Shown here: one piece after another, positions 1 to 10,965 of the stretch
Layout: each line of letters begins with the position of its first letter
Position numbering within the stretch: the stretch's first letter is position 1
UHGV virus genome: UHGV-1359962
Source of the DNA: a virus
DNA length: 10,965 nucleotides
Direction: 5' to 3' (one strand)
Notes under the pieces: generated by a model
Database searches by the model: none
What the model was told of the DNA's origin: nothing
What the model saw: only the letters and a program-made list of their open reading frames with translations
Program-made: the position numbers and the translations under genes

Positions 1-1347
1 CTTACTGGTCAGTTTGGTGACATGTTAGCCCGTATTGAGGCTGGGGAGTTTCCAGCAAGTACAATTTTGCTAGTTGAGAGTATCGACCGTATAGGCCGAT
101 TAGAGCATCTTGAAACAGAAGCCTTGATGAACCGCATCTTAGGCAACGGGATAGAGATTCACACATTGCAAGATGGCCTTATCTACACAAAGGATGCTTT
201 AGCCGATGACCTTGGCATAAGCATCATCCAGCGTGTCAAAGCCTACATAGCGCATCAGGAATCTAAGCAGAAATCTTTCCGTGTTAGTCAGAAGTGGGAA
301 CAACGTGCAAAACTTGCCCTTGCTGGTGAACAACGTCTTACAAAGATGGTTCCCGGATGGATTGACCCCGATACTTTCAAGTGCAATGAACACGCTGAGA
401 CTGTAAGACTGATTTTCAAGCTGCTGCTAGATGGTGAAAGTCTGCATAACATTGCACGTCACCTACAGGCTAATAACATTAGTTCATTCTCACGGCGTAA
501 AGATGCTAACGGGTTTAGTGTTCACTCTGTGCGTACTATCTTAAGGTCAGAGACAACGATAGGCACACTACCAGCATCACAACGCAATGACCGCCCCGCT
601 ATACCGAACTACTACGAAGCCGCTATAGATGTATCAACGTTCAATAAAGCTCAAGAGATTCTCGATAAAAACCGTAAAGGCCGTACACCTGCAAGTGATA
701 ACCCATTAACGATTAACATCTTCAAGGGATTATTCCGGTGTCAGTGTGGGGCTAGTGTTCACCCTACAGGGACTAAGAATAAGTATCAGGGTGTTTATCG
801 GTGCAATAACCATCTTGACGGTCGCTGTGATGTTCAACCGTTGAAGCGTAAACCGTTTGACCGATGGATGATTGATAATTTTCTGGGGATGATTGACGTG
901 GGGAATGATGGAGAATCAGAGAGGAAGATTGCAGCGTTACAGCATGAGGTTGAAATTGTCACAGCCAGAATCAAGAAAGCTACCGCCCTACTTCTTGAGA
1001 TGGATGATATTGATGAACTAAAAATTCAGCTTAAGGAACTGAACCAGAAGCGCACAGAACTACAGACCACGATTGATAACATGAGGCGTAAGGCTTCACT
1101 CACTGATAAGGAACTACCCCAGCTTAAAGATATTGACCTGACAACTAAAGCGGGTCGTGTCGAGTGTCAATTAATTTTGTCCAAACATCTAAAAGGGCTT
1201 ACATTGGGTAAGGATACGGTAACTGTAACGCTACAGAACGACACTGAAATAACCATACCTACAGACCCGCTACCGCTAAATGATGGAACATCAATCTTTG
1301 AAATTGCTGAGAAAAATCTTTTGAATATTGACACTTTCCAACTGTAG
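1..1347 (+). CDS. Large serine recombinase (integrase/resolvase family), C-terminal ~449 codons; 5' end runs off the window start
   Basis: Frame 1 is open from position 1 to TAG at 1345-1347. Translation shows the end of a serine-recombinase catalytic domain (TILLVESIDRIGR), a recombinase-domain-like block (ETVRLIFKLLLDGESLHNIARHLQANNI ... SVHSVRTILRSETTIGTL), a Cys-rich zinc-ribbon-like motif (FRCQCGASVHPTG...YRCNNHLDGRC) and a coiled-coil-like C-terminus (ERKIAALQHEVEIVTARIKKATALLLEMDDIDELKIQLKELNQKRTELQ). Family assignment is by motif recognition, no search run. Confidence 0.85.
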   Translation, partial: LTGQFGDMLARIEAGEFPASTILLVESIDRIGRLEHLETEALMNRILGNGIEIHTLQDGLIYTKDALADDLGISIIQRVKAYIAHQESKQKSFRVSQKWEQRAKLALAGEQRLTKMVPGWIDPDTFKCNEHAETVRLIFKLLLDGESLHNIARHLQANNISSFSRRKDANGFSVHSVRTILRSETTIGTLPASQRNDRPAIPNYYEAAIDVSTFNKAQEILDKNRKGRTPASDNPLTINIFKGLFRCQCGASVHPTGTKNKYQGVYRCNNHLDGRCDVQPLKRKPFDRWMIDNFLGMIDVGNDGESERKIAALQHEVEIVTARIKKATALLLEMDDIDELKIQLKELNQKRTELQTTIDNMRRKASLTDKELPQLKDIDLTTKAGRVECQLILSKHLKGLTLGKDTVTVTLQNDTEITIPTDPLPLNDGTSIFEIAEKNLLNIDTFQL

Positions 1348-1356
1348 CAATCAATC

Positions 1357-1374
1357 AGGGGGCTATGCCCCCCT
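1357..1374. terminator. GC-rich hairpin between convergent stop codons (1347 plus, 1379 minus); candidate bidirectional terminator
   Basis: GGGGGC (1358-1363), loop TAT, GCCCCC (1367-1372). It sits exactly between the two convergent genes. The flanking T-tracts are weak on both strands, so confidence is limited. Confidence 0.4.
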
Positions 1375-1378
1375 TCTA

Positions 1379-2167
1379 TCAATATCTCTTGTTCGGATTC
1401 ACTGAGTACTTTTTAAGCTTTGAAGCTACCCGACCAGCGTTACTATTAGCATTGGTGACGTTGGTTTTTTCAGCTTCTGTTAAGTCTGAATAGTCCAGCT
1501 TCCAAGCCTTATTACATTTAATCTGAGCATCGAGAATATCATTTCTGATAGCTGGAGCGTAACCGGATACATCGCTAATATCCATTAGCTCTTTGCACGA
1601 TAGCATAGGCGCGTTATTGCGTTCAGTGGTCACGTTACCTGCATTCTTCTTACTGGTCACACCACCGTCATTAGTGGTAGCCGTTTTGCCAGTGGCAGCC
1701 GAAATATCAGTTTGCCCCACAATAGCTTTAAAGTTAATTTCCTGAAAAGTTAGCTGGATTCTCAGGCCGTTTGAAATACCAACATCTTTTGAGGCTTTAA
1801 AGCTCGTAATAATGGAATCATCAATTTTAATCCCATCTTTACAGATGACAGAAATAATCTGCTTCTGGTCACGCCAGTTTTCAAGGGTTTCGATGAAGTT
1901 TTCTACTAATTGACCCTGACGAGTTAATAATAAGCTTCCTTCATAGCCAACTACAACGACACCACTAATAGTGATTGTTCTGGGTGCTCTTTGCACATTA
2001 TCTGTGACAGTTTGCCCTGATTGCATGTTCTGTGTAGTCACCTGCATAGGACTATCAAATTCCATGTTTTCAGTTGCTGATAAGGTTAAGAAGGCATCTA
2101 CATTATCTCTTAAGTGGAAATAGATGCCATCTTTGCCACTGTAACGAATCTGATTAGAGTAAATCAT
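1379..2167 (-). CDS. Hypothetical protein, 262 aa, immediately downstream of the tape-measure-like gene; tail-associated role is possible only by position
   Basis: ATG at 2167-2165 preceded by AAGGAG (complement of 2174-2179) with 6-nt spacing. The ORF-track start at 2188 is a TTG and is less likely. Stop TGA at 1381-1379. No recognisable domain; the sequence has a hydrophobic beta-like stretch ([18 protein letters not shown]) and a Thr/Asn/Gly-rich segment. Confidence 0.6.
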
Positions 2168-2242
2168 TAAATTCTCCTTTGATTTCAAAGGCTTAGTGTA
2201 TTTTAATCATTTTTAACCAAGCCTTTGATATATAAGTATTTT

Positions 2243-2289
2243 CTCTGTTAAGCGTGAGCTACGTAAATTCTATTTTTCAGTGCGGGTAT
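2243..2289. promoter_or_regulatory. Conserved ~45-bp element (CTCTGTTAAGCGTGAGCTACGTAAA ... GGGTAT), copy upstream of the 262-aa gene
   Basis: 25-nt block identical to 4519-4543, followed by a similar ATTTTT..GGGTAT tail. Lies in the 135-bp gap between the TMP-like gene stop (2324) and the 262-aa gene start (2167). Confidence 0.45.
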
Positions 2290-2323
2290 TAACTTTGCTT
2301 TATTCACGTAGAACACCGTTAAA

Positions 2324-4504
2324 TCAATCATCTTCTGGGAATGATGAACTTAATAACGTAGCTTCTGCATATTGGTCGTAGATATTACTGCTAAAGGTCA
2401 TAAAGCTGGTTTCATCTGGTTTAATGGCAACTTCACCACCAAGTGAAACTTTCACAGGCTCCTGAATACGCTTACTTAAAGCAGAGATTTCATCCCTCAG
2501 ACCCTGAATATCTGCACTCGTTAATGATGCATCTTGTTTCATGGTAATTAATTCTGGATGATTGAATCTTGCAATATTCATTGTGGCATTGTTAAACAAT
2601 TCACCCATTGAACTAAAAATCCTGCCCCATCCTTCGTTAATCATATTCGGTTTATTAGGGTCACCAGAATACACAGGATTAAAGTCACTACCCACACCTA
2701 CCCCAGATGGATGCATATTAGCGTTTTTGACTACTTCCTGATTCATAAAATCCAGTGCTTTCTTCAATGCATATAAACCAAGAGTGACACCTCTGATTTG
2801 TGGAATCATTGAAGCTAATGCTAACGCTGTTTCATAACCGTCATCAGCATAACCAATTGCAAGAGCACTACCTACACCACCAGCTACACCTTTCAGTTTT
2901 CCACCACCTTTACCAGTAGCTACCTGACCAGCCACCTGATTAGCTCTTGTACCTAACGTTGTGATTGCTCTTGTCAGGTTCATAACCCCTGTAGTAGCAC
3001 TGAATAGTGTCTTTGCAGATAACGCTATAGCAAGACCTTTGACAAAATTGATAAAACCATCACCGACTTCATCAAGTAGTTTTCGTTTAGTGTCATCAAG
3101 GCTGTAATAGAACTTCTTAGTCTGTAGAATCCAGCCTTCAAGGTGATTGTTAAAGATACGGATGTCATCTACACCAGCTTTAAGCATGTCGATAAGTCCA
3201 CCGATAGCATCACCAGCGATAGAAGAACTCATACCCATTTCACTAAGCAGGTTACTCAGGCTGGATAAGAAGCCGTTTAGCTCATCCTGTGAACCTGAGA
3301 AGATTTTCACCATCGTATCATCCCAGTTGTTAGCCAGTTTCCCTAAAGCTGTCTGAGTGCTCTTAGCGACTTCAGCCCAGCCACCCGCTTTATCAATCAT
3401 CAAGCCCATCTGTTTAGCGACTTTAGGGAGAGTATCACTACTTAAAATCTTCCCGTTTTTCATGGCTGCATCAAGCTCTGTAGCAGTCATACCCAGTGCT
3501 TCAGCGAATAGCTTAAATGCACCAGCCATACGGTCACCTAACTGTCCACGAAGCTCTTCAGCCTGAATCTTGCCCTTAGAAGCCATCTGCTCAAAAGCTT
3601 TCAAAATGCCGTTTAGCTCGTCGTTAGAAAGCCCCATTAAGCGACTCATAGCCGTTGCATTACCAAATAGTTCCTGTGTCTGTTCCTGTGACATAGAACC
3701 CTGAGCACCTGCTGCAAACTTAGCGTAGCTTGACAGCCCTTCAGAGATATTAAGACCTGTCTTGTCTGCTAAATTTCGAATAAATACCTCAGCCTCAGAT
3801 GCTTTATCACCAAGTACAAACTTAGCGGCTCTCTGTGCGGAATCTCGTTTAAGACCTGCATTCATAATGGCCTTGTAAGCGTTAAGAGCACCCATCACAG
3901 AGTAAAATGCACCAGATAATTTAATTGCATTGCTTGCAAGATTATTAAATGCGTCGCTTGTATTATTAATGCTGGTGGTCTTTGTCTGTGACCTGAGTTT
4001 ATTCAACGTTTCACGAAGAGATTGATTTAATTTTGCAAGTTCAGCGTTAAACTTTTCACTTCCAATATTACCAGCCTTGCCGCTTAAACTGTAATATTGT
4101 GCTTTAAACATTTTAGCCATCAGCGGATTAATATCACCAAGCTTAGACATATTCACACTATGCGCTGCTGTGATTGCTCTGTTTCCGCTAATTCGTGGCT
4201 GTCTTGGTTGTTTTGGAGGATTGATAACGTCATTAACCTGACTTGTGAAACGGAAAACTCTAGTGTTTTTTGCTCTAGCTTCCAGACGGTCAAAGGTCTT
4301 ATTAAACTTCCTTTCAAGTTGCCCTAAAGAACTTGTCAGATTGCTGTCAAGTTGCTTGGTATCGACCTTAAACGCTCTATTCAAATTACGTTCAATTCTT
4401 TGTGCTGACTGCAAAGCTGCCTTTTCAACTCTTTGCAAGCCCTTAATAACGTTCTCGCTGAAGCCTAGCTCAACGATAAAACTATCAACTTTAAATTGTG
4501 CCAT
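2324..4504 (-). CDS. Phage tail tape-measure-like protein, 726 aa
   Basis: Long ORF, ATG at 4504-4502, stop TGA at 2326-2324. Predicted helical N-terminal half. The segment MSRLMGLSNDELNGILKAFEQMASKGKIQAEELRGQLGDRMAGAFKLFAEALGMTATELDAAMKNGKILSSDTLPKVAKQM resembles the conserved tape-measure domain as I recall it, and Gly-rich hydrophobic stretches (GQVATGKGGGKLKGVAGGVGSALAIGYADDG) are typical of TMPs. The SD-like GAGGTG lies 11 nt upstream of the ATG, so the exact start is uncertain. Confidence 0.75.
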   Translation of the reverse strand: MAQFKVDSFIVELGFSENVIKGLQRVEKAALQSAQRIERNLNRAFKVDTKQLDSNLTSSLGQLERKFNKTFDRLEARAKNTRVFRFTSQVNDVINPPKQPRQPRISGNRAITAAHSVNMSKLGDINPLMAKMFKAQYYSLSGKAGNIGSEKFNAELAKLNQSLRETLNKLRSQTKTTSINNTSDAFNNLASNAIKLSGAFYSVMGALNAYKAIMNAGLKRDSAQRAAKFVLGDKASEAEVFIRNLADKTGLNISEGLSSYAKFAAGAQGSMSQEQTQELFGNATAMSRLMGLSNDELNGILKAFEQMASKGKIQAEELRGQLGDRMAGAFKLFAEALGMTATELDAAMKNGKILSSDTLPKVAKQMGLMIDKAGGWAEVAKSTQTALGKLANNWDDTMVKIFSGSQDELNGFLSSLSNLLSEMGMSSSIAGDAIGGLIDMLKAGVDDIRIFNNHLEGWILQTKKFYYSLDDTKRKLLDEVGDGFINFVKGLAIALSAKTLFSATTGVMNLTRAITTLGTRANQVAGQVATGKGGGKLKGVAGGVGSALAIGYADDGYETALALASMIPQIRGVTLGLYALKKALDFMNQEVVKNANMHPSGVGVGSDFNPVYSGDPNKPNMINEGWGRIFSSMGELFNNATMNIARFNHPELITMKQDASLTSADIQGLRDEISALSKRIQEPVKVSLGGEVAIKPDETSFMTFSSNIYDQYAEATLLSSSFPEDD

Positions 4505-4518
4505 TGTTCATATTTCAC

Positions 4519-4563
4519 CTCTGTTAAGCGTGAGCTACGTAAAAAATAATTTTTGGTGGGTAT
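4519..4563. promoter_or_regulatory. Conserved ~45-bp element, copy abutting the RBS of the TMP-like gene
   Basis: CTCTGTTAAGCGTGAGCTACGTAAA at 4519-4543 is identical to 2243-2267, and the tail ATTTTTGGTGGGTAT matches ATTTTTCAGTGCGGGTAT. It ends 14 nt from the TMP start codon. Confidence 0.45.
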
Positions 4564-4595
4564 ATCTGTTCAGAAGATTTCACGTAGCACACATA

Positions 4596-4638
4596 CAAAA
4601 AAGGGAGAAACTACCGAATAATATCGATAATCTCTCCC
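4596..4638 (-). terminator. Candidate rho-independent terminator (minus strand) after the 71-aa gene
   Basis: On the minus strand GGGAGAGA (complement of 4638-4631) pairs with TTTCTCCC (complement of 4610-4603) around a 20-nt loop, followed by TTTTTTGT (complement of 4602-4595). The loop is long, so the call is tentative. Confidence 0.4.
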
Positions 4639-4686
4639 CGTGTTATAGATTCGATAGAACCTATCTCATACACCCAACCAATTCTT

Positions 4687-4902
4687 TTAATGCATGACAA
4701 GATAATGTAGTTCCGTTTCACCTATGATTTGAGCATCAGAAGGAATACGGTCGATACACCATTTTGGAATCTTGCGTGTTTTTGGTTTGCGTGAGGTGAT
4801 AATTTGATGTTTGGTTTTAATTCTTAAGACTGGCTTAGTTTGTAACTTTAAGTTTTCACAAACAGACTTAATAGTTTCATAGCGTTCTGTTAAATCAATC
4901 AT
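4687..4902 (-). CDS. Small basic hypothetical protein, 71 aa
   Basis: ATG at 4902-4900 preceded by GAGGTGA with short spacing. It starts 22 nt after the stop of the 234-aa gene (operon arrangement). Lys/Arg-rich middle (KTKHQIITSRKPKTRKIPKW). No domain recognised. Confidence 0.5.
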   Translation of the reverse strand: MIDLTERYETIKSVCENLKLQTKPVLRIKTKHQIITSRKPKTRKIPKWCIDRIPSDAQIIGETELHYLVMH

Positions 4903-4924
4903 TCATCACCTCACATATGCATAA

Positions 4925-5629
4925 TTAAACAGCCTTGCTAAATTCTCGTGGAACACTCAGAAAATCATTGAAGCTGATAATCTGTGCCAACTCTTGACGG
5001 TACTCCTTAGCCAGCGCTTGATGGTCACTAATCAGCTTAGCCAGTCTTGATTTCAGCAAATTAATCTCATTTTCTCTTGCTTTCATCAGTTTCTCTTTGG
5101 CAATTTCTTCAAGCTCAGCTTGTGATTTATCAGCAACAATTAGAGACAGTCGATGTGGTGCTCTGACAGCTCTTTCTGTACGAACAACTCTTTGACCTTC
5201 TGGTAAATCTGCAATCACTTTACCAATCTCTACAGGGTCATACCCCCAACCGTCACGGTCTAGTCGAGAGAAATAAGCATAAGAATTGGTTTGAAGCTCC
5301 ATCAAAATAGCCATTTCGTCAATTTCGTCTTCAAGTTTGGACTGAATTTTCTCGTAAACACTTCTCATTGCTTCTTGAGAGTCTCGAAGGTCTTTGAAAT
5401 ATTTGCGTTGCAGCTTCAGTTTCAAATCAAGCTCACATTCCTCATTCATCGAAAAATCAATTTCAACTCTTGGAATCTCGATTGGTTCTGGTGGAATATA
5501 TGGACCTTTATTTACTTCGTGCGATTCCCGCCAAGCTCTATCAAAAGATTCACGCAAAGTTAATTCGTGAATATCAAGTGCACTTGGTCTGTTCTCAACA
5601 ATCATTTCGTGTTCATTACGAATGGACAT
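4925..5629 (-). CDS. Acidic coiled-coil-like hypothetical protein, 234 aa
   Basis: ATG at 5629-5627 with AGAGGAA upstream; stop TAA at 4927-4925. Charged, heptad-like regions (EAMRSVYEKIQSKLEDEIDEMAILMEL; ELEEIAKEKLMKARENEINLLKSRLAKLISDHQALAKEYRQELAQI). No family recognised. Confidence 0.7.
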   Translation of the reverse strand: MSIRNEHEMIVENRPSALDIHELTLRESFDRAWRESHEVNKGPYIPPEPIEIPRVEIDFSMNEECELDLKLKLQRKYFKDLRDSQEAMRSVYEKIQSKLEDEIDEMAILMELQTNSYAYFSRLDRDGWGYDPVEIGKVIADLPEGQRVVRTERAVRAPHRLSLIVADKSQAELEEIAKEKLMKARENEINLLKSRLAKLISDHQALAKEYRQELAQIISFNDFLSVPREFSKAV

Positions 5630-5877
5630 TAATATTTTCCTCTTCTAAGATAATTTATGTTTCAGTTTTTAAAAAGCACACCTGACAGCCTACGAACTTA
5701 GAAGAGACTTAAAAGCGTTTGCCAAGTATGCTTTTTAAAAGCTGAAAAAAGCCCTAAACATAGGTGATTCGGATATTCATGGAATCATCCTCATCTGTGA
5801 AGGGCTTTGAAGGTTTGCTTTAACGTTAACGAAGTTTCAGGAAAAACTTTCTTTAAAAGCTCTGTTTAAAAACTCTT

Positions 5878-5907
5878 AAAGAAAACGCCCTAATCATGAG
5901 TTAGGGC
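5878..5907 (-). terminator. Rho-independent terminator (minus strand) downstream of the small-gene operon
   Basis: 7-bp stem GCCCTAA (5887-5893) / TTAGGGC (5901-5907) with a 7-nt loop. On the minus strand the hairpin is followed by GTTTTCTTT (complement of 5886-5878). Confidence 0.5.
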
Positions 5908-6208
5908 AAAGCTGTAAGGGTTCAATAATGAATGATTAAGCACTTTTTGATATATAGCCTATCTAGTGGGCTAAATAGGCCATGTAGCGAAAAGCATTGC
6001 ACCTTTCAGAATAACTATCCCTAGATGTAGATGGAATTGTTGAAAGAAATAAGAGAGAATTGCTCTCCCATACTTAAAATTATGGCATATTTAAGGTTAT
6101 TTGTCAACAGCTTTTTAACAGATTGGTAACATTAATTCTTATTTACCGTGTTACCTACCCAGCAACCAACAAATAAACCCAAAGCTGTCCAAGCAATTAT
6201 TAAGCCCA

Positions 6209-6532
6209 TTAATGCACCACCTTCGAATCCGTAACCAAAATATTGTCAGCGTACAAAATTGCTATAGCTGCCTTGAGATATCTTTCAGGGCTAACGCTGT
6301 ATCGGTTCGTTTGCTCGATAACCAATCTTTTCATGTTGCTGTCTTTAATTGGTAGCATCATTCGAGGCTCGTTAAACTCCACCAACTGAATAAAATCTTC
6401 AATTGTTTCTGAGTTATCAGCCATTAGCCTTAACAGCCTGTCAAAGTCAATGCTAACACCTACATCAGTGAAAGCCTGAATCATCATAGCGGTGTCGCTA
6501 TCAACGAAAATCTGTAATTCGTAATTGTTCAT
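6209..6532 (-). CDS. Hypothetical protein, 107 aa
   Basis: ATG at 6532-6530 (MNNYELQIF...) preceded by AAGGAG (complement of 6542-6547). The ORF-track start at 6565 is a TTG 11 codons upstream and less likely. Stop TAA at 6211-6209. Confidence 0.6.
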   Translation of the reverse strand: MNNYELQIFVDSDTAMMIQAFTDVGVSIDFDRLLRLMADNSETIEDFIQLVEFNEPRMMLPIKDSNMKRLVIEQTNRYSVSPERYLKAAIAILYADNILVTDSKVVH

Positions 6533-6550
6533 TTTTAAAATCTCCTTTTT

Positions 6551-6673
6551 ACCAGACCTCCTCAATCGCTCTGTAACGAGCTAAACAGTCTTTTTCAGGG
6601 GTAGCCTGTACAGTGGTATTACCCACCCTAAAATAAGGTAGTTTTTTGCGTTAGAATGCGATTGAGAGCGTCT
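6551..6673. repeat. Copy 1 of a ~100-120 bp paired element with conserved 19-nt and 21-nt end blocks
   Basis: TCAATCGCTCTGTAACGAG at 6562-6580 and AGAATGCGATTGAGAGCGTCT at 6653-6673 are identical to 8230-8248 and 8298-8318. The interior is similar but diverged. Lies in the gap between the HNH-like gene and the 107-aa gene. Confidence 0.6.
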
Positions 6674-6687
6674 GAGAAGCTGTTTTT

Positions 6688-6975
6688 CTAATTTCTCTTA
6701 AAGTCTCGGACTTGCATAAGATTTTTTGGTCTGGTATCGGCTCTGTTACCATTTCGATGGATAATTTGCTTGTTGGATTGATAGCCATGATAAAGGAACC
6801 AGACAACATATTTCACGTAGAAAGTATATCGGCCTATATTAAATGTTTTGTTGCCGTAGTCGTCGGTATTTATCGTGACTGACTCTCCATCAGACCAGTA
6901 CAGGGAATCACTGGATTCATCATAGATAAGGTGTTCTGTAAAATATCGTCTAACATCTTCATGCCAAGGTTTCAT
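6688..6975 (-). CDS. HNH_3-like (homing-endonuclease-type HNH) small protein, 95 aa
   Basis: ATG at 6975-6973 with strong GGAGG 4-5 nt upstream. Motifs LIYDESSDSLYWSDGESV and IHRNGNRADTRPKNL resemble the HNH_3-type nuclease signature (His ... GN ... N-L) as I recall it. Shorter than typical members. Its start overlaps the upstream gene stop (ATGA). Confidence 0.55.
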   Translation of the reverse strand: MKPWHEDVRRYFTEHLIYDESSDSLYWSDGESVTINTDDYGNKTFNIGRYTFYVKYVVWFLYHGYQSNKQIIHRNGNRADTRPKNLMQVRDFKRN

Positions 6976-7187
6976 AAAACCTCCTCACCCCAATAACCTA
7001 ATTCAATCTTGTGACGCTCAAACCATTCCGGTTTAACTGCTGTTTTCAGTACTTCATTTGGGCCAATGGCTTTAATGAAAATATCTTTTGAGTTATGGAT
7101 GTCACCGAATCCGTTTCCTTTAATCAGGAGGTCGGAGATGTGGCGAATCATTTTATCTGTGTGGTATTCAAAGGTAACGCATAGCAT
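6972..7187 (-). CDS. Hypothetical protein, 71 aa
   Basis: ATG at 7187-7185 with GGAGG 4 nt upstream. Start overlaps the stop of the upstream 92-aa gene by 1 nt (TAATG) and its stop overlaps the HNH-like gene start (ATGA), indicating translational coupling. Confidence 0.5.
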   Translation of the reverse strand: MLCVTFEYHTDKMIRHISDLLIKGNGFGDIHNSKDIFIKAIGPNEVLKTAVKPEWFERHKIELGYWGEEVL

Positions 7188-7465
7188 TAAACCTCCATCG
7201 CTAACTTGTGAATCTTAAGACTCAATAGACGGGCAATATCAATTTTAAAGCCGTTAAGTCCCTTCAAAGTATCTAAAGCGTCCTGAGTAATTCGGATGTG
7301 TTTACGACCTTTAGAGACTGGATATCTAAGTAAATCCGACTCAGTAACCTCTTTAGCAATTGCAAGCTGCATAACAGTCTGATGAGGCAAGTTAGTAGCT
7401 CGTTTAATTCTGGCAAGCTCGTTAAAAGCTTCCTCTGAAATACGGGTCAAAGTGTGTTTCTTCAT
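7187..7465 (-). CDS. Hypothetical protein, 92 aa
   Basis: ATG at 7465-7463 with AGAGGAA upstream, directly adjacent to the stop of the 185-aa gene. No domain recognised with confidence. Confidence 0.55.
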   Translation of the reverse strand: MKKHTLTRISEEAFNELARIKRATNLPHQTVMQLAIAKEVTESDLLRYPVSKGRKHIRITQDALDTLKGLNGFKIDIARLLSLKIHKLAMEV

Positions 7466-8023
7466 TTAAAATTCCTCTGTAACTAAATACGGGTCAAACT
7501 CGAAATCTGGTTGCTCGTTTTCCATTGGCTCAATATTTCCAACGGCAATATGATGCTCAACAACACCAATTAACTTTGCGCACATTACAGCAAGCAAAGC
7601 GCAATATTTATCGCTTGGTAATTCATGGCTAAGTCTGGTTGCTTGACGCTGAAGATAATTTGTCACGGTAGCTGAGTTAATTTCATCAAGATTCTTTAGA
7701 ATATAAAATAGCTTTCTGTTGTATTTTGGGTGACCTTCGCTTCTGCAAAATCCGATAATTACATCTTCAAACTTGCGTGGTAATTGCTCGTAAGAATCAA
7801 CGTTAGCCAAATAATTTTTGATGCTGTTCTGGGTGCTCTTTCTGGTTGACATATAACGACTCCTCGGTGTAATTGCCCGAATTACTTCGTCAATGCCTTT
7901 GCGTTCTGCTCTGGTGAACTTGGGTACTTCGTGGCTGGTGGGGTTGTTTGTGTAAGCGTAGGAGTTGTGCTTGTTGCGTTCTCTTGATGCCTGAAGCATC
8001 GCTCTAAATTCTCTGTCGTTCAT
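7466..8023 (-). CDS. Hypothetical protein, 185 aa, first gene of the minus-strand small-gene operon
   Basis: ATG at 8023-8021 downstream of a candidate sigma70-type promoter. The SD-like AAGGA is 11 nt upstream; an out-of-frame ATG at 8027-8025 is better spaced, so the start is somewhat uncertain. Confidence 0.6.
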   Translation of the reverse strand: MNDREFRAMLQASRERNKHNSYAYTNNPTSHEVPKFTRAERKGIDEVIRAITPRSRYMSTRKSTQNSIKNYLANVDSYEQLPRKFEDVIIGFCRSEGHPKYNRKLFYILKNLDEINSATVTNYLQRQATRLSHELPSDKYCALLAVMCAKLIGVVEHHIAVGNIEPMENEQPDFEFDPYLVTEEF

Positions 8024-8071
8024 TCATAAGCCAGTCCTTATAATTGTTAATTCTCTGTTAACTTATATACA

Positions 8072-8100
8072 ATACTAGCATTTTCAAAGACTAATGTCAA
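8072..8100 (-). promoter_or_regulatory. Candidate sigma70-type promoter for the minus-strand operon
   Basis: On the minus strand: -35 TTGACA (complement of 8100-8095), 17-nt spacer, -10 TAGTAT (complement of 8077-8072). Confidence 0.5.
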
Positions 8101-8107
8101 GCATTTT

Positions 8108-8137
8108 TTAACATTTCATTAACATCTGTGGTATAAT
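8108..8137 (+). promoter_or_regulatory. Candidate plus-strand promoter with extended -10, divergent from the operon promoter
   Basis: -35-like TTAACA (8108-8113), 18-nt spacer, TG at 8129-8130 and -10 TATAAT at 8132-8137 (TGgTATAAT). Confidence 0.55.
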
Positions 8138-8219
8138 GGTTTTATGGGGAGAGTAAAATATGAGGCGTGGCTATGAGGTATCAACTATCGAGAATGGCCG
8201 CATGGTTATTGCATTGCAC

Positions 8220-8318
8220 ACAGACCTCTTCAATCGCTCTGTAACGAGTTAAATGGCCTCTTCAGGTCAACTCATAAGGTCAGGTACTTTTTGTGTCAGA
8301 ATGCGATTGAGAGCGTCT
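8220..8318. repeat. Copy 2 of the paired element, within the leader of the membrane-protein gene
   Basis: Blocks at 8230-8248 and 8298-8318 are identical to copy 1. Located between the plus-strand promoter and the ATG at 8333. Confidence 0.6.
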
Positions 8319-8332
8319 TACAAGGAAATTTA

Positions 8333-8521
8333 ATGGTAAATCTCCCTCCTGAACTGGGGTCACCTGATGTATGGGCTGGTGGAGGTGTTGGACTTATTGC
8401 GGGTCTGCTGCTTCGCTATTTCATCGTCAGAGTGTTTATCGTGTTCAGATTGTTTGGTCGTGAATGGTCGTTTGACCTCAAGGACAGGACCAGAACAGAC
8501 AACCACACAGAACCCCGCTAA
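8333..8521 (+). CDS. Small membrane protein, 62 aa, one predicted transmembrane helix
   Basis: ATG at 8333 with AAGGA 6 nt upstream; stop TAA at 8519-8521. Translation MVNLPPELGSPDVWAGGGVGLIAGLLLRYFIVRVFIVFRLFGREWSFDLKDRTRTDNHTEPR has one hydrophobic helix followed by a charged C-terminus. Preferred over the alternative frames at 8291 and 8367 because of the RBS and protein-like composition. Confidence 0.5.
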   Translation: MVNLPPELGSPDVWAGGGVGLIAGLLLRYFIVRVFIVFRLFGREWSFDLKDRTRTDNHTEPR

Positions 8522-8534
8522 ACTCCCTTCAAAA

Positions 8535-8575
8535 CCCCTATACCATCTCGTACAGGGGTATCTTTAGCATTTTGT
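8535..8575 (+). terminator. Candidate terminator after the membrane-protein gene
   Basis: Stem CCCCTATAC (8535-8543) / GTACAGGGG (8550-8558) with one mismatch, then a T-rich tail TATCTTTAGCATTTTGTG. Confidence 0.35.
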
Positions 8576-8635
8576 GCTATCTATTAAAAAACGGCTTGAC
8601 AGAACCGGAAAGCTGTATCTATCAAGTATTCACCT

Positions 8636-8816
8636 CTCTGACAGTAATTTCTAAAAGTTCTTATTTTTCAATGAGTTGTAATTAGCCAATATAAAGGACT
8701 GACAAGACCCTTCACAATTAACTCTGTAACCTTAACAGTAATTTCTAAAAATGCTTATTTTTCAATAAGTTGTAATCACCCAATATATAAGACTGTCCAG
8801 TACCTTCACAGATAAC
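8636..8816. repeat. Two tandem direct repeat units of about 86 and 95 bp
   Basis: Unit 1 (8636-8721) and unit 2 (8722-8816) align along their length. Shared blocks include CAGTAATTTCTAAAA, CTTATTTTTCAAT, AGTTGTAAT and GACTG.C.AG..CCTTCACA..TAAC. Confidence 0.7.
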
Positions 8817-9603
8817 TTCAAGCCCTCTTAACCGCCCCACTAATCGGGAGAAGAGCGATAACCCCAGAGAGGGAAGCTCCCTTCTTAATCGGCCTCCTAA
8901 CCAGTCTTTACAAACCTTGTTCAAGGTAATCACAATAGTTTTTCTTCCCTCGGTTTCCTGTGTTCCTCGGTTTATCTATTGAGACTTGAAAGACCTCTGT
9001 AAGTGCTCTCTTAGCGAGAGAAAAATCATTCATAGTGACCCCAAGCGAAGTGCCCCTCTAAAAAGATTTTTTAGCTATTTTGCTTAAAACCATATCAAAC
9101 GATACATTTTATTGATTTAGGTCAAAGACAAAAACATTGACAAAATGGTATGATTGTTCACATGACCTTACTTAACAGATTCTTAAGAGCTTTGAAACGA
9201 CCTACTTAACAAGGTCACTACCTCTGGTCTTATCGTTCCCTTCTTTCTAGGTAGTCATCTGTTAAGAACTTTTCAGTTTTATTCTTAAGATAATTGTTAA
9301 GATGATACTCTCCCTTCGGGTTATATCGTATCTCTTCCCCCGTTAAACACTCCTTCCTAACAACTTCATAGTTATCTGTCAAGTACCTTTGAAGATTCTA
9401 TCAAGACCTCTAAATCTGACCTGATATAGATGCTGTGAAGGCATGTTCTCTAGGTCTGTGTAGCTTACTTAGTGGGAAGAGAGGGTGATACATGAGAAAG
9501 AACCCCTCCTACTTAAAAGAATTATTTGACATTATTGTGATGGTTATTTAAGATGCAACTGTACAGACACCTTCATCGGTTTCTCTACACCTTCCTATGG
9601 CTT

Positions 9604-9664
9604 GGTCTGGCTAGGTAGGGTGGGGTCTGGTTAGGTAAGGTGGGGTATGGTTAAGTGTGGGTGG
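9604..9664. repeat. Three tandem ~20-bp iterons
   Basis: GGTCTGGCTAGGTAGGGTGG (9604-9623), GGTCTGGTTAGGTAAGGTGG (9624-9643), GGTATGGTTAAGTGTGGGTGG (9644-9664). Confidence 0.75.
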
Positions 9665-9696
9665 ATTGTCGTAGCCACGTTAAAAATCGACTTATA

Positions 9697-9720
9697 GGGA
9701 CTCTTTCGGGAGTCCTTTTT
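9697..9720 (+). terminator. Rho-independent-type terminator hairpin with UUCG loop
   Basis: GGACTCT (9698-9704) pairs with GGAGTCC (9709-9715) around the loop TTCG (9705-9708), followed by TTTTT (9716-9720). Confidence 0.55.
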
Positions 9721-10791
9721 AGTTTGTATAAAATCTGTACAGTAACTTTTCAGATTCTGAAAATTTTTATAAAAAAATAATCAGGCCTCTTCTAAGTCTC
9801 TTCAACCAAATCTTTCAAAAATATCTACACTCAATTGATGGCTGTTAAGTACCCCAGATTCACGATATAGCACCCCCTTTGCAAAAGCAGTTAAAATATC
9901 TATAACCAACTATTGACTTTCTTCATAGCATCTGTTAAGTCCACCTCAAGAAACCTTCATCACACTTCAAAGCATCTATCAAGAAGGTTTAACCTATCAA
10001 TAGCTGTAACATTTTGTAGTTCTGTGAAGTCCTATCCAGTTTTCTCTGTAACAGACACAAACTTCTGCGACCTTATGTATCAATGACTTAGAATACATGC
10101 TCTCAAGGTTCTGTATAGTCTCTTATCTTCAAATACACAAAACCCTTATAAATCAGTACTGATACGTATACAGTTCGTTTTTAACATAATGGCTGTTTTA
10201 CGCACTAATCGTGTTCTACATGAAATCTGTATAGATATTAAGGTGTCTGTAAGTGATTTTTTAAGAAGGGACTACGAAGATTTGACAAGGTAACTATGAG
10301 GTTGATTCCTAGAACAACCGAATCAACTATAACCATCACTTTTCAATATTCACGCAGGATATCGTTAAGTTTCTTGATAGTTACACCATGTGACCAACTG
10401 CATAGATAGCGTTATATACTCCTGTATATATCACTTTTCTAGGAGTCTGGAGAGGGACGACTAACACGATACAGTTTACCCTGAAAAGAGACTTCACAGA
10501 TTCTTTATATATTTCAATAAGTTATGCTAAAAAGAGACTATACCGATACTGCATAGAATCTGTGTAAAACTGCTTAGATACTTGGGAAAATGCCTTTAAA
10601 TTGCATAGTCATAGGGGTTGGAACAAGCCCAACTTCACCTGATATTGTCCTGTAATTAACAGGTTTCTTAGAAAACCGAATAGACTTCATTCAAGGGTCA
10701 TTGTATTGTAGCTATTCGGCATTGTAGCATTAGCCATAACGTTTATAAGTTCATCTTTAAATGATAATCAATTGCATGGGAGTTTATCACC

Positions 10792-10965
10792 ATGAGACAC
10801 GTAATTACATACCTTCGGTACAGTTCAGCCATACAAGGCGCTGAAGGTGCTGATTCAACCAGACGACAAAATGAGCTATTCAAACAGTGGTTAAGGAAGA
10901 ATAGCGATGCTCAGGTAGTTGCGTCTTTCAGTGATGAAGGGTTGAGTGGTTACAAAGGTAAGCAC
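10792..10965 (+). CDS. Serine recombinase N-terminal catalytic segment (58 codons); 3' end runs off the window end; probably the same gene as 1-1347
   Basis: ATG at 10792 preceded by GGGAG (10779-10783). Translation MRHVITYLRYSSAIQGAEGADSTRRQNELFKQWLRKNSDAQVVASFSDEGLSGYKGKH carries the serine-recombinase N-terminal signature (Y-x-R-x-SS-x-x-Q with the presumed catalytic Ser, later D-x-G-x-SG). The frame ends exactly on a codon boundary at 10965. Confidence 0.7.
   Translation, partial: MRHVITYLRYSSAIQGAEGADSTRRQNELFKQWLRKNSDAQVVASFSDEGLSGYKGKH

Follow-up and report, generated by a model that had tools for sequence, protein, structure and literature searches.

What kind of genetic element is an 11-kb sequence, catalogued as viral, that encodes a large serine recombinase and parts of a phage tail and carries no gene for a head, and which phage, if any, would move it? 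This question is raised by UHGV virus genome UHGV-1359962, a sequence of 10,965 bp analyzed over its whole length (hereafter the window, whose positions serve as coordinates throughout). An earlier note, made from the letters alone, had proposed an undescribed helper-dependent satellite, and in silico analyses support that proposal through gene matches confined to Felixounavirus, noncoding matches confined to Ounavirinae, pieces of a phage direct terminal repeat (DTR), and a phage-like GC content. We assign a probability of roughly 0.6 to the reading that the element represents a previously undescribed family of integrative satellites whose helpers would be virulent Felixounavirus (Ounavirinae) myoviruses. 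The profile is that of a satellite because the element excises, is non-autonomous, and has phage-related genes and noncoding DNA that point to one virulent lineage.

The window is the whole, complete element in its excised circular attP form. Its sequence is an exact circular permutation of a chromosomal element seated between tonB and yciI in E. coli. In alignments to E. coli chromosomes, positions 1-4912 and 5627-10703 follow the integrated element, positions 10691-10964 correspond to the DNA directly before window position 1 in integrated copies, and the junction formed by the last and first 150 nt of the window is found at 100% identity, gap-free, in two integrated copies. A 13-bp core (TCAAGGGTCATTG), which contains the tonB start codon, is common to the empty K-12 attB, to attP, and to attL and attR of two copies (L001 and L002), and its flanks swap between the attachment (att) sites as site-specific recombination predicts (Table 1). 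By these alignments, excision regenerates the exact circle represented by the window. Integrated copies with flanking attL and attR, for which the earlier note had proposed a search, are thus present in E. coli chromosomes; the possibility, named there as refuting, that the window might be an internal fragment of a larger prophage or plasmid falls away because the window is a circular permutation with a shared att core, has a gap-free junction, and gave no match to plasmids. The same permutation explains why the open reading frame (ORF) of the large serine recombinase, correctly recognized from the start and confirmed by its Pfam and PHROG domains, is cut by the window ends; the joined ORF encodes 506 aa, begins MRHVITYLRYSS, and runs collinear with the protein of equal length that is annotated as "recombinase family protein" in L001 and L002. 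The element is hence discrete and integrative, with its own integrase, its own att sites and an excised form. Insertion at the tonB start codon shifts the native tonB promoter ~11 kb away, and the element end facing tonB (10691-10791, - strand) places new sequence upstream of the gene, in which there are -10 boxes of the TGCTACAAT type and, over 11 nt, a Fur-box-like core (AATGATAATCA). A Fur box proper was considered here and set aside, as only the 11-nt core is present and the 17-nt consensus had no match at ≤3 mismatches.

Related sequences are widespread. Matches to the whole window occurred in 549 of 5,426 complete E. coli genomes and matches to the element-specific part (4687-8140) in 475/5,426, all of them chromosomal, a carriage of ~9% or roughly one genome in eleven. 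Family homologs were found in E. coli, Salmonella, Shigella, E. fergusonii, and Citrobacter. Some elements are inserted within yecE, a second integration site, with a recombinase that is only 34% identical. The discrete circle, the presence in hundreds of genomes and the use of two sites support a mobile element. Elements of the tonB type measure 10,965-11,783 bp and share a constant backbone: the recombinase, the tail tube initiator, the tape measure protein (TMP), a 71-aa ORF, a 234-aa ORF, a 0.5-kb leader, and a 107-aa ORF, followed by an exchangeable early module, divergent promoters, a 62-aa ORF, and a cargo slot with noncoding DNA. The cargo slot, empty in the window, holds a Dam methylase, a small resolvase/invertase, an AP2-HNH protein, or genes of no recognized kind in relatives. 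Homologs of the 185-, 234-, and 107-aa ORFs form 1,089, 40, and 3,450 clusters at 90% identity, every one named hypothetical. Prophage finders and satellite finders appear to miss the family, and no account of it turned up in the searchable literature; a possible identity with SpLE2 of O157 Sakai was rejected, since SpLE2 occupies a different locus (cobU-yeeB). An in silico study described how a virulent coliphage and E. coli chromosomes had exchanged 544 bp, at a place where PHASTER found no prophage (PMC11069274); that locus is probably the locus of the present element.

The gene inventory is that of an element which would need a partner. Window ORFs were compared with four libraries of profile hidden Markov models (Pfam, PHROGs, NCBIfam, and PADLOC), and none matched a capsid, portal, terminase, lysis, primase, or helicase family, in agreement with the first inspection of the sequence. 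The TMP and the tube initiator are the only structural genes, leaving the element without the genes to build its own virion. Six of the small ORFs described initially as unrecognisable (71, 234, 107, 71, 92, and 185 aa) indeed matched no family in any of the four libraries, and another, of 95 aa, is an HNH_3 protein. The other refuting outcome named in the note, that small ORFs match known structural or replication proteins, was mostly not borne out, the exception being the tube initiator. Similarly, the reported lack of a replication initiator holds for this window and not for some relatives, which have an initiator-like gene heading the early operon. Among the ten ORFs scanned with PADLOC defence models there was no match, relaxase, oriT-associated and conjugation proteins found no match in Pfam, PHROGs, or NCBIfam, and scans of the window found neither tRNA genes nor an above-threshold Rfam family.

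A specific molecular link to one helper lineage is present in silico, in the tail homologs and in noncoding matches restricted to Ounavirinae. The single tape-measure-like gene first recognized is indeed a TMP gene, and it is one of two tail genes, the second encoding a Dit-like tube initiator; in the helper, the tail tube is filled by the first of these proteins and started by the second. Their matches in the PDB bear the names "Tape measure protein gp017" (9ndy_F) and "Tube initiator protein gp018" (9ndy_A). Comparison with relatives suggests that the tube initiator probably starts at the ATG at 2167, giving 262 aa as in those relatives. Among 50,697 phage genomes, window 1634-4505 was the sole DNA match, with 212 records, essentially all Felixounavirus, at 88-96% nt identity on segments; the other element proteins had no homolog in the Felixounavirus phage garuso. 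The top megablast phage match, GU169904, was deposited as "Staphylococcus phage SA1" and is ~92% identical to Felix O1-like tail genes; the record appears, from its sequence, to contain Felixounavirus DNA.

Both tail proteins are chimeric, with a phage-like character retained in the likely docking regions for phage parts and a remainder that has diverged. In a block-wise comparison with phage, the tube initiator is 96-100% identical over aa 50-150 and 12-28% identical over aa 200-250. The TMP is 74% identical in its first 50 aa, ~70% at aa 300-350, and 42% in its last 26 aa, where the motif LLSSS[FY]PE is retained; the remaining blocks are 14-42% identical (mostly <36%), and overall the protein is ~30% identical to the helper TMP. 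A structural study of phage Bas63 describes gp18 as a hexameric tube initiator with a tube-like domain and a ~100-aa C-terminal extension spanning the baseplate, a hub complex of hub gp20 and puncturing protein gp21, and contacts of the last 25 TMP residues with hub and puncturing protein (PMC12609058). The chimerism closely fits this structure, the tube-like domain being kept and the ~100-aa extension having diverged. The two element proteins are homologs of Bas63 gp17 and gp18 (PDB 9ndy) that preserve the tube-like domain and the TMP termini contacting hub parts, but differ in a diverged C-terminal extension, a TMP of low overall identity, and genes that are chromosomal and integrative. The genes are also arranged differently, abutting in phage and separated by a 135-bp control region in the element. 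Ratios of nonsynonymous to synonymous substitution (dN/dS) of 0.05-0.39 for the tube initiator and ~0.3 for the TMP indicate that both genes are under purifying selection and are therefore working genes. The motif pair upstream of each tail gene (Table 1) is present in relatives. It is not obviously a helper promoter, because it is absent from garuso.

Proteins that keep the likely docking regions of their phage counterparts and diverge elsewhere might also serve as poisons. One could regard the element as an integrative anti-phage defence island that is not transduced and spreads by other means. Its deviant TMP and tube initiator, expressed upon Felixounavirus infection, would attach to helper baseplates by their conserved parts and spoil tail assembly, a type of tail-assembly interference, to which the 62-aa membrane protein might contribute exclusion or abortive killing. 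The separate control region upstream of each tail gene, unlike phage, would suit this explanation, as would the high diversity of TMPs in the family (6-100% identical per 50 aa, versus ~95% alike in phage) and the Dam methylase and nuclease-type genes in the cargo slot of relatives. We nevertheless consider it unlikely. PADLOC offered no match, and the explanation leaves unaccounted for the terminal-repeat-like sequences, the element-wide phage-like GC content, and an excision system intact at two sites. Known satellites likewise interfere with their helpers, and for this reason defence is better seen as a component of the satellite reading than as its replacement.

The combination of an integrase with phage tail genes at a chromosomal site also recalls a cryptic prophage, that is, a decayed temperate relative of the Felix O1-like phages that retained two tail genes and an integrase; some copies carry insertion sequence (IS) elements, and the NCBI Prokaryotic Genome Annotation Pipeline (PGAP) labels the tail genes of copies as phage proteins. 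This origin seems to us highly improbable. The architecture is compact, with intact ORFs under purifying selection in all fetched copies; hundreds of genomes hold related sequence, with two integration sites in use; and an exact excised circle exists. The tail genes are separated and have their own control regions, unlike relics of a tail operon. Remnants with homologs in complete phages, which would mark a defective prophage, were not found: the core 107- and 234-aa ORFs had no match in any of the 50,697 phage genomes (the 185-aa ORF had one weak match), and the noncoding DNA contained no other structural-gene or pseudogene remnants.

The noncoding DNA provides the second link to phage. The ~2.2-kb repeat-dense noncoding region of the earlier note stands as to extent (2.17 kb, with no ORF that stays open across relatives), while its repeat density is just moderate, consisting of one 94-bp tandem duplication, one 20-bp x2.5 array, and the motif TCTGTDAAG (11 copies in the window against 0.5 expected by chance). 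The 94-bp duplication is a possible iteron-like origin element. Among the 50,697 phage genomes, the noncoding region matched Ounavirinae only. Its GGT-rich module (9596-9691) reached E = 5e-15 against the whole phage database and matched two sites just upstream of promoters in the phage replication-gene region; as a small RNA or core feature this module was rejected because it is present in just about a quarter of relatives. In garuso, a 1.66-kb noncoding region between convergent transcription units (48951-50610) is dense in TGTTAAG-type heptamers. The 618-bp DTR annotated in phage UAB_69 maps to garuso 49410-50004, and several independent phage records start or end at its boundaries. The pattern TGTTA[AG], related to the window motif TCTGTDAAG, reaches 37 per kb in the DTR versus 2 per kb genome-wide (~18-fold enrichment). 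These heptamers may be terminase or replication protein sites; the arrays go undiscussed in the Felix O1 genome paper (PMC3185647). None of 300 dinucleotide shuffles of the element's noncoding region reached the top two observed DTR-match scores. DTR-like segments are kept in 9 of 12 relatives, yecE-type elements included, and in one relative the shared stretch extends over ~170 bp and crosses the DTR's right boundary. Base composition is likewise phage-like, with a GC content of 39.7% in the window and 38.9% in garuso, versus 49% in the E. coli flank. The T4-type late promoter (TATAAATA) is absent from the window.

Sequence sharing alone could arise if the element spread without Felixounavirus particles, through conjugative mobilisation, generalised transduction, or natural recombination, and swapped tail segments with phages by homologous recombination during infection. 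Mosaic segments of 88-96% nt identity do show recombination with phages, and the 544-bp exchange mentioned above is of this kind. Of the alternatives considered, we nonetheless hold this to be the least probable. The searches for relaxase, oriT-associated, and conjugation proteins gave no match, the element was never found on plasmids, and such spread would leave unexplained both the two intact tail genes and the conservation of terminal-repeat-like noncoding DNA across relatives.

Returning to the satellite reading, we hypothesize the following life cycle. The element would lie silent in the chromosome, its late operon held behind a strong promoter followed by several terminator-like hairpins. 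Felixounavirus infection would set off excision and copying, the latter via the exchangeable early module (with the 185-aa ORF here and an initiator-like protein in relatives) and/or the phage replisome. The helper terminase would recognise the terminal-repeat-like sequences and load the element's DNA into heads made by the helper, as concatemers or, in smaller heads, as monomers. The element's TMP and tube initiator would enter helper-built tails through their phage-like parts (the tube-like domain, the TMP N-terminus, and the C-terminal tip), and their diverged parts may adapt the particles to the element or spoil helper tails, two options that are not exclusive. After injection into a new cell, the recombinase would integrate the element. 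The narrower proposal, a new class of satellite that swaps the tail core for a matched, fast-diversifying TMP/tube-initiator pair and borrows the terminal-repeat packaging signals of its helper, is tentative, and we hold it at somewhat less than even odds. Eight circles of 10,965 bp amount to 87.7 kb, near the helper genome plus terminal repeat (~86.4 kb), a figure that would suit concatemer packaging; the fit may be coincidence, because family sizes vary between 10.97 and 11.8 kb.

Several observations weigh against the satellite reading. Helper-dependent induction, replication, packaging, and transfer are inferred, as is the part played by the tail genes. A 30-mer spanning the attP junction was matched by none of the viral, genome, or metagenome contigs searched, the IMG/VR contigs that hold relatives are integrated copies with bacterial flanks, and exact-protein look-ups likewise returned only integrated copies or short contigs. 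The stretches that resemble the DTR are short, at 18-61 nt, and ~82% identical, their role in the phage is itself putative, and they fell below the chosen threshold in 3/12 relatives. No capsid-size factor, repressor, excision factor, or origin is identifiable in the element, and the structure predictions were poor, with a mean predicted local distance difference test (pLDDT) score of 56 for the 234-aa ORF (AF2) and 41 for the 185-aa ORF. Some family members are decaying, with IS21, IS2, and IS3-family insertions that split the recombinase and TMP genes (copy L015, 257-8696; copy L016, 2000-4836). Finally, neither a tape measure gene nor a tube-initiator gene is known to us from any described satellite, which leaves the two tail genes with a role that has no precedent.

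Among known satellites, the element would work most like PLE (phage-inducible chromosomal island-like element) of Vibrio cholerae. By their general features, PLEs resemble it in having a virulent myovirus helper, a compact chromosomal island, a large serine recombinase, mostly small unique ORFs, a large noncoding region, and no head or terminase genes. The differences lie in the hosts (E. coli, Salmonella, Shigella, and Citrobacter here) and in phage links to Felixounavirus, as opposed to V. cholerae and ICP1; in the absence of any shared Pfam or PHROG family, a separation made by family assignments only; and in the lack of a recognised RepA_N-type initiator in the window. To our knowledge, PLE carries no tape measure or tube-initiator gene. 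The earlier statement that the gene set is unlike P4, phage-inducible chromosomal islands (PICIs), and PLE holds for the P4 and PICI gene sets, whereas for PLE the serine integrase is shared and the host and phage are not.

P4 encodes a tyrosine integrase, the alpha primase-helicase, Sid, Psu, and Delta, and its helper is temperate. None of these five proteins was detected in the window with Pfam, PHROGs, or NCBIfam, and the element's integrase is a serine recombinase. There is a likeness in organization, PMC9122126 presenting P4-like satellites as 11-kb integrative elements of E. coli chromosomes with a variable cargo hotspot. The tyrosine integrase, AlpA, and pri-rep genes of PICIs, and the capsid, portal, and small terminase genes of capsid-forming PICIs (cf-PICIs), were not found either. 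cf-PICIs produce heads and packaging proteins themselves and rely on the helper for tails alone. Self-encoding a part of the virion and obtaining the remainder from a helper is common to both, but the logic is inverted, since the present element lacks genes for heads or packaging and supplies two internal parts of the tail; the two kinds also differ in integrase type and in all other genes. The PICMIs (phage-inducible chromosomal minimalist islands) of Vibrionaceae are, according to PMC10803314, small satellites of virulent phages with reduced gene content, no capsid-remodelling genes, and concatemer packaging. They offer a possible model for how an 11-kb element might fill an 86-kb head. PICMIs belong to another bacterial family, and the present element is larger, has a serine recombinase and two structural tail genes, and shares no detectable proteins with them.

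What would be new, as far as known, is a satellite family with tail-core genes that lack precedent in known satellites. If the tail proteins do enter helper tails, they would represent a new way to hijack or sabotage a virion and, given the Bas63 structure, a natural system for studying how tail core and baseplate are matched. Under the tail-core-swapping proposal, TMP diversity would be the trace of an arms race over DNA injection or tail assembly. Felix O1-like phages have a classic place in Salmonella typing and are often included in cocktails for biocontrol and therapy. A resident element tuned to Felixounavirus in ~9% of complete E. coli genomes could lower phage efficacy or move host DNA, and the family could in that case shape phage-therapy outcomes and gene transfer in E. 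coli and Salmonella. It also exposes an annotation blind spot, its genes being called "hypothetical" or, wrongly, "transposase".

Table 1. Positions of genes, attachment sites, and regulatory or noncoding features in the window
Feature	Position	Strand	Remarks
Large serine recombinase, 5' part	10792-10965	+	continues at window position 1
Large serine recombinase, 3' part	1-1347	+	Pfam Resolvase, Recombinase, Zn_ribbon_recom; PHROG_95 integrase 5.7e-65
Tail tube initiator (Dit-like), 269-aa ORF	1379-2188	-	Pfam Dit_like 2.4e-20; PDB 9ndy_A 3.3e-115
Intergenic, upstream of tube-initiator gene	2189-2323	-	conserved motif GTGTTCTACGTGAA ... TTTACGTAGCTCACGCTTAACAGAG; gap absent in phage
TMP, 726 aa	2324-4504	-	TMP_3 2.7e-21; PHROG TMP 4e-95; PDB 9ndy_F 1e-73
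Intergenic, upstream of TMP gene	4505-4686	-	terminator-like hairpin 4639-4602, then motif pair as at 2189-2323
Basic 71-aa ORF	4687-4902	-	no family match; hypothetical in relatives
234-aa ORF	4925-5629	-	predicted all-helical, two long helices (61-114 and 170-224)
Late-operon leader	5630-6107	-	sigma-70-like promoter 6107-6079 (11/12 consensus positions, TG); hairpins 6071-6049 and 5908-5886; inverted repeat 5660-5747
107-aa ORF	6209-6532	-	best-conserved stretch of the family; without known relatives
Hairpin-forming element, copy 1	6553-6679	-	between HNH ORF and 107-aa ORF; fold z-score -3.3
Early operon	6688-8023	-	185-aa (7466-8023), 92-aa (7187-7465), 71-aa (6972-7187), HNH_3 95-aa (6688-6975)
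Sigma-70-like promoters, back to back	8100-8072 (leftward); 8108-8137 (rightward)	both	10/12 (leftward) and 11/12 (rightward) consensus positions; both with TG
Hairpin-forming element, copy 2	8221-8324	+	in 5' leader of 62-aa ORF; fold z-score -1.05, not significant
62-aa ORF, one hydrophobic helix (single-transmembrane)	8333-8521	+	family-conserved, found by comparing relatives
Noncoding region and cargo slot	8522-10690		2.17 kb
94-bp tandem duplication	8641-8817		84% identity between units; well conserved in relatives
Helper-DTR-like segment	9190-9248		61 nt, 82%, inside phage DTR
DTR match	9556-9573		18/18, inside phage DTR
Phage promoter-upstream-like module	9596-9691		GGT-rich repeats and GTAGCCACGTTAAAAATC
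Hairpin terminator	9696-9717		
Conserved block	9731-9850		among the most widely shared noncoding parts of the family
Phage-matching stretch within this block	9735-9774		matches 60-110 bp right of phage DTR
Conserved block	10391-10600		AAGAGACT-type repeats
attP	10671-10714		13-bp core at 10691-10703; 8-bp inverted arms CCGAATAG / CTATTCGG
attP sequence			...ACTTCAT-TCAAGGGTCATTG-TATTGT...
attB sequence (empty K-12 site)			...GGTAAA-TCAAGGGTCATTG-AAGTCA...
attL sequence			...GGTAAA-TCAAGGGTCATTG-TATTGT...

The remaining genes are organized around two leftward operons. The late genes (the 234-aa ORF, the basic 71-aa ORF, the TMP, and the tube initiator) lie behind the promoter at 6107-6079, whose leader contains two or more terminator-like hairpins in addition to an inverted repeat (28-nt arms), a layout suggestive of read-through control. 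The near-consensus promoter, a hairpin within ~35 nt, and more hairpins beyond it resemble the PR'/tR' layout of lambda, an arrangement that serves antitermination. The leader and its upstream neighbor are highly conserved, region 5900-6500 aligning in 95-100% of 19 family loci; the region of the basic 71-aa ORF aligns in 82-95% of them. In a set of 1.84 billion representative proteins, the 107-aa ORF found only 18 matches, most of them fragments that belong to the family itself.

The 234-aa ORF has a dN/dS of 0.18-0.59, and its 40 homolog clusters come from E. coli, Shigella, and Citrobacter only. That it encodes a scaffold or capsid-size factor is a guess only; profile comparisons of its family with the helper's tape-measure chaperone and with the head protease/scaffold were both negative. 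Neither the 234-aa nor the 185-aa ORF gave a significant match in a PDB sequence search, and the name "transposase" that PGAP gives, in many genomes, to a 236-aa allele of the former (e.g. L001 13194-13904) is unsupported by Pfam and NCBIfam models.

The early module is exchangeable within the family, and relatives carry alternative modules. In this window it includes the HNH_3 endonuclease ORF (Pfam HNH_3, 1.8e-8) and is headed by the 185-aa ORF, whereas some relatives have at its head an O-like protein of 322 aa with a match to replication initiators in PHROGs (1.8e-7). Given this initiator-like protein in relatives, the leading position of the early operon is plausibly a replication module; the 185-aa ORF itself is unrelated to that protein. 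Two back-to-back promoters at 8072-8137 face the early operon (leftward) and the 62-aa ORF (rightward), and the block around them (8051-8170) is 93-95% identical among aligned relatives.

The 62-aa ORF corrects the earlier note, which had counted this conserved gene as part of a noncoding area. It is open in nearly all relatives at 66-97% aa identity, is annotated by PGAP in copies L014 and L017, and has no family match; possible roles are those of a small membrane toxin, of an exclusion factor, or of a holin-like protein. Its leader holds one of the two copies of a hairpin-forming element of ~105-127 nt, both with the closing stem CAGAC..CTCAATCGC / GCGATTGAG..GTCTG. RNAs made from both sites would be complementary to each other, a situation reminiscent of immunity based on RNA (P4, P1) or of type I toxin control.

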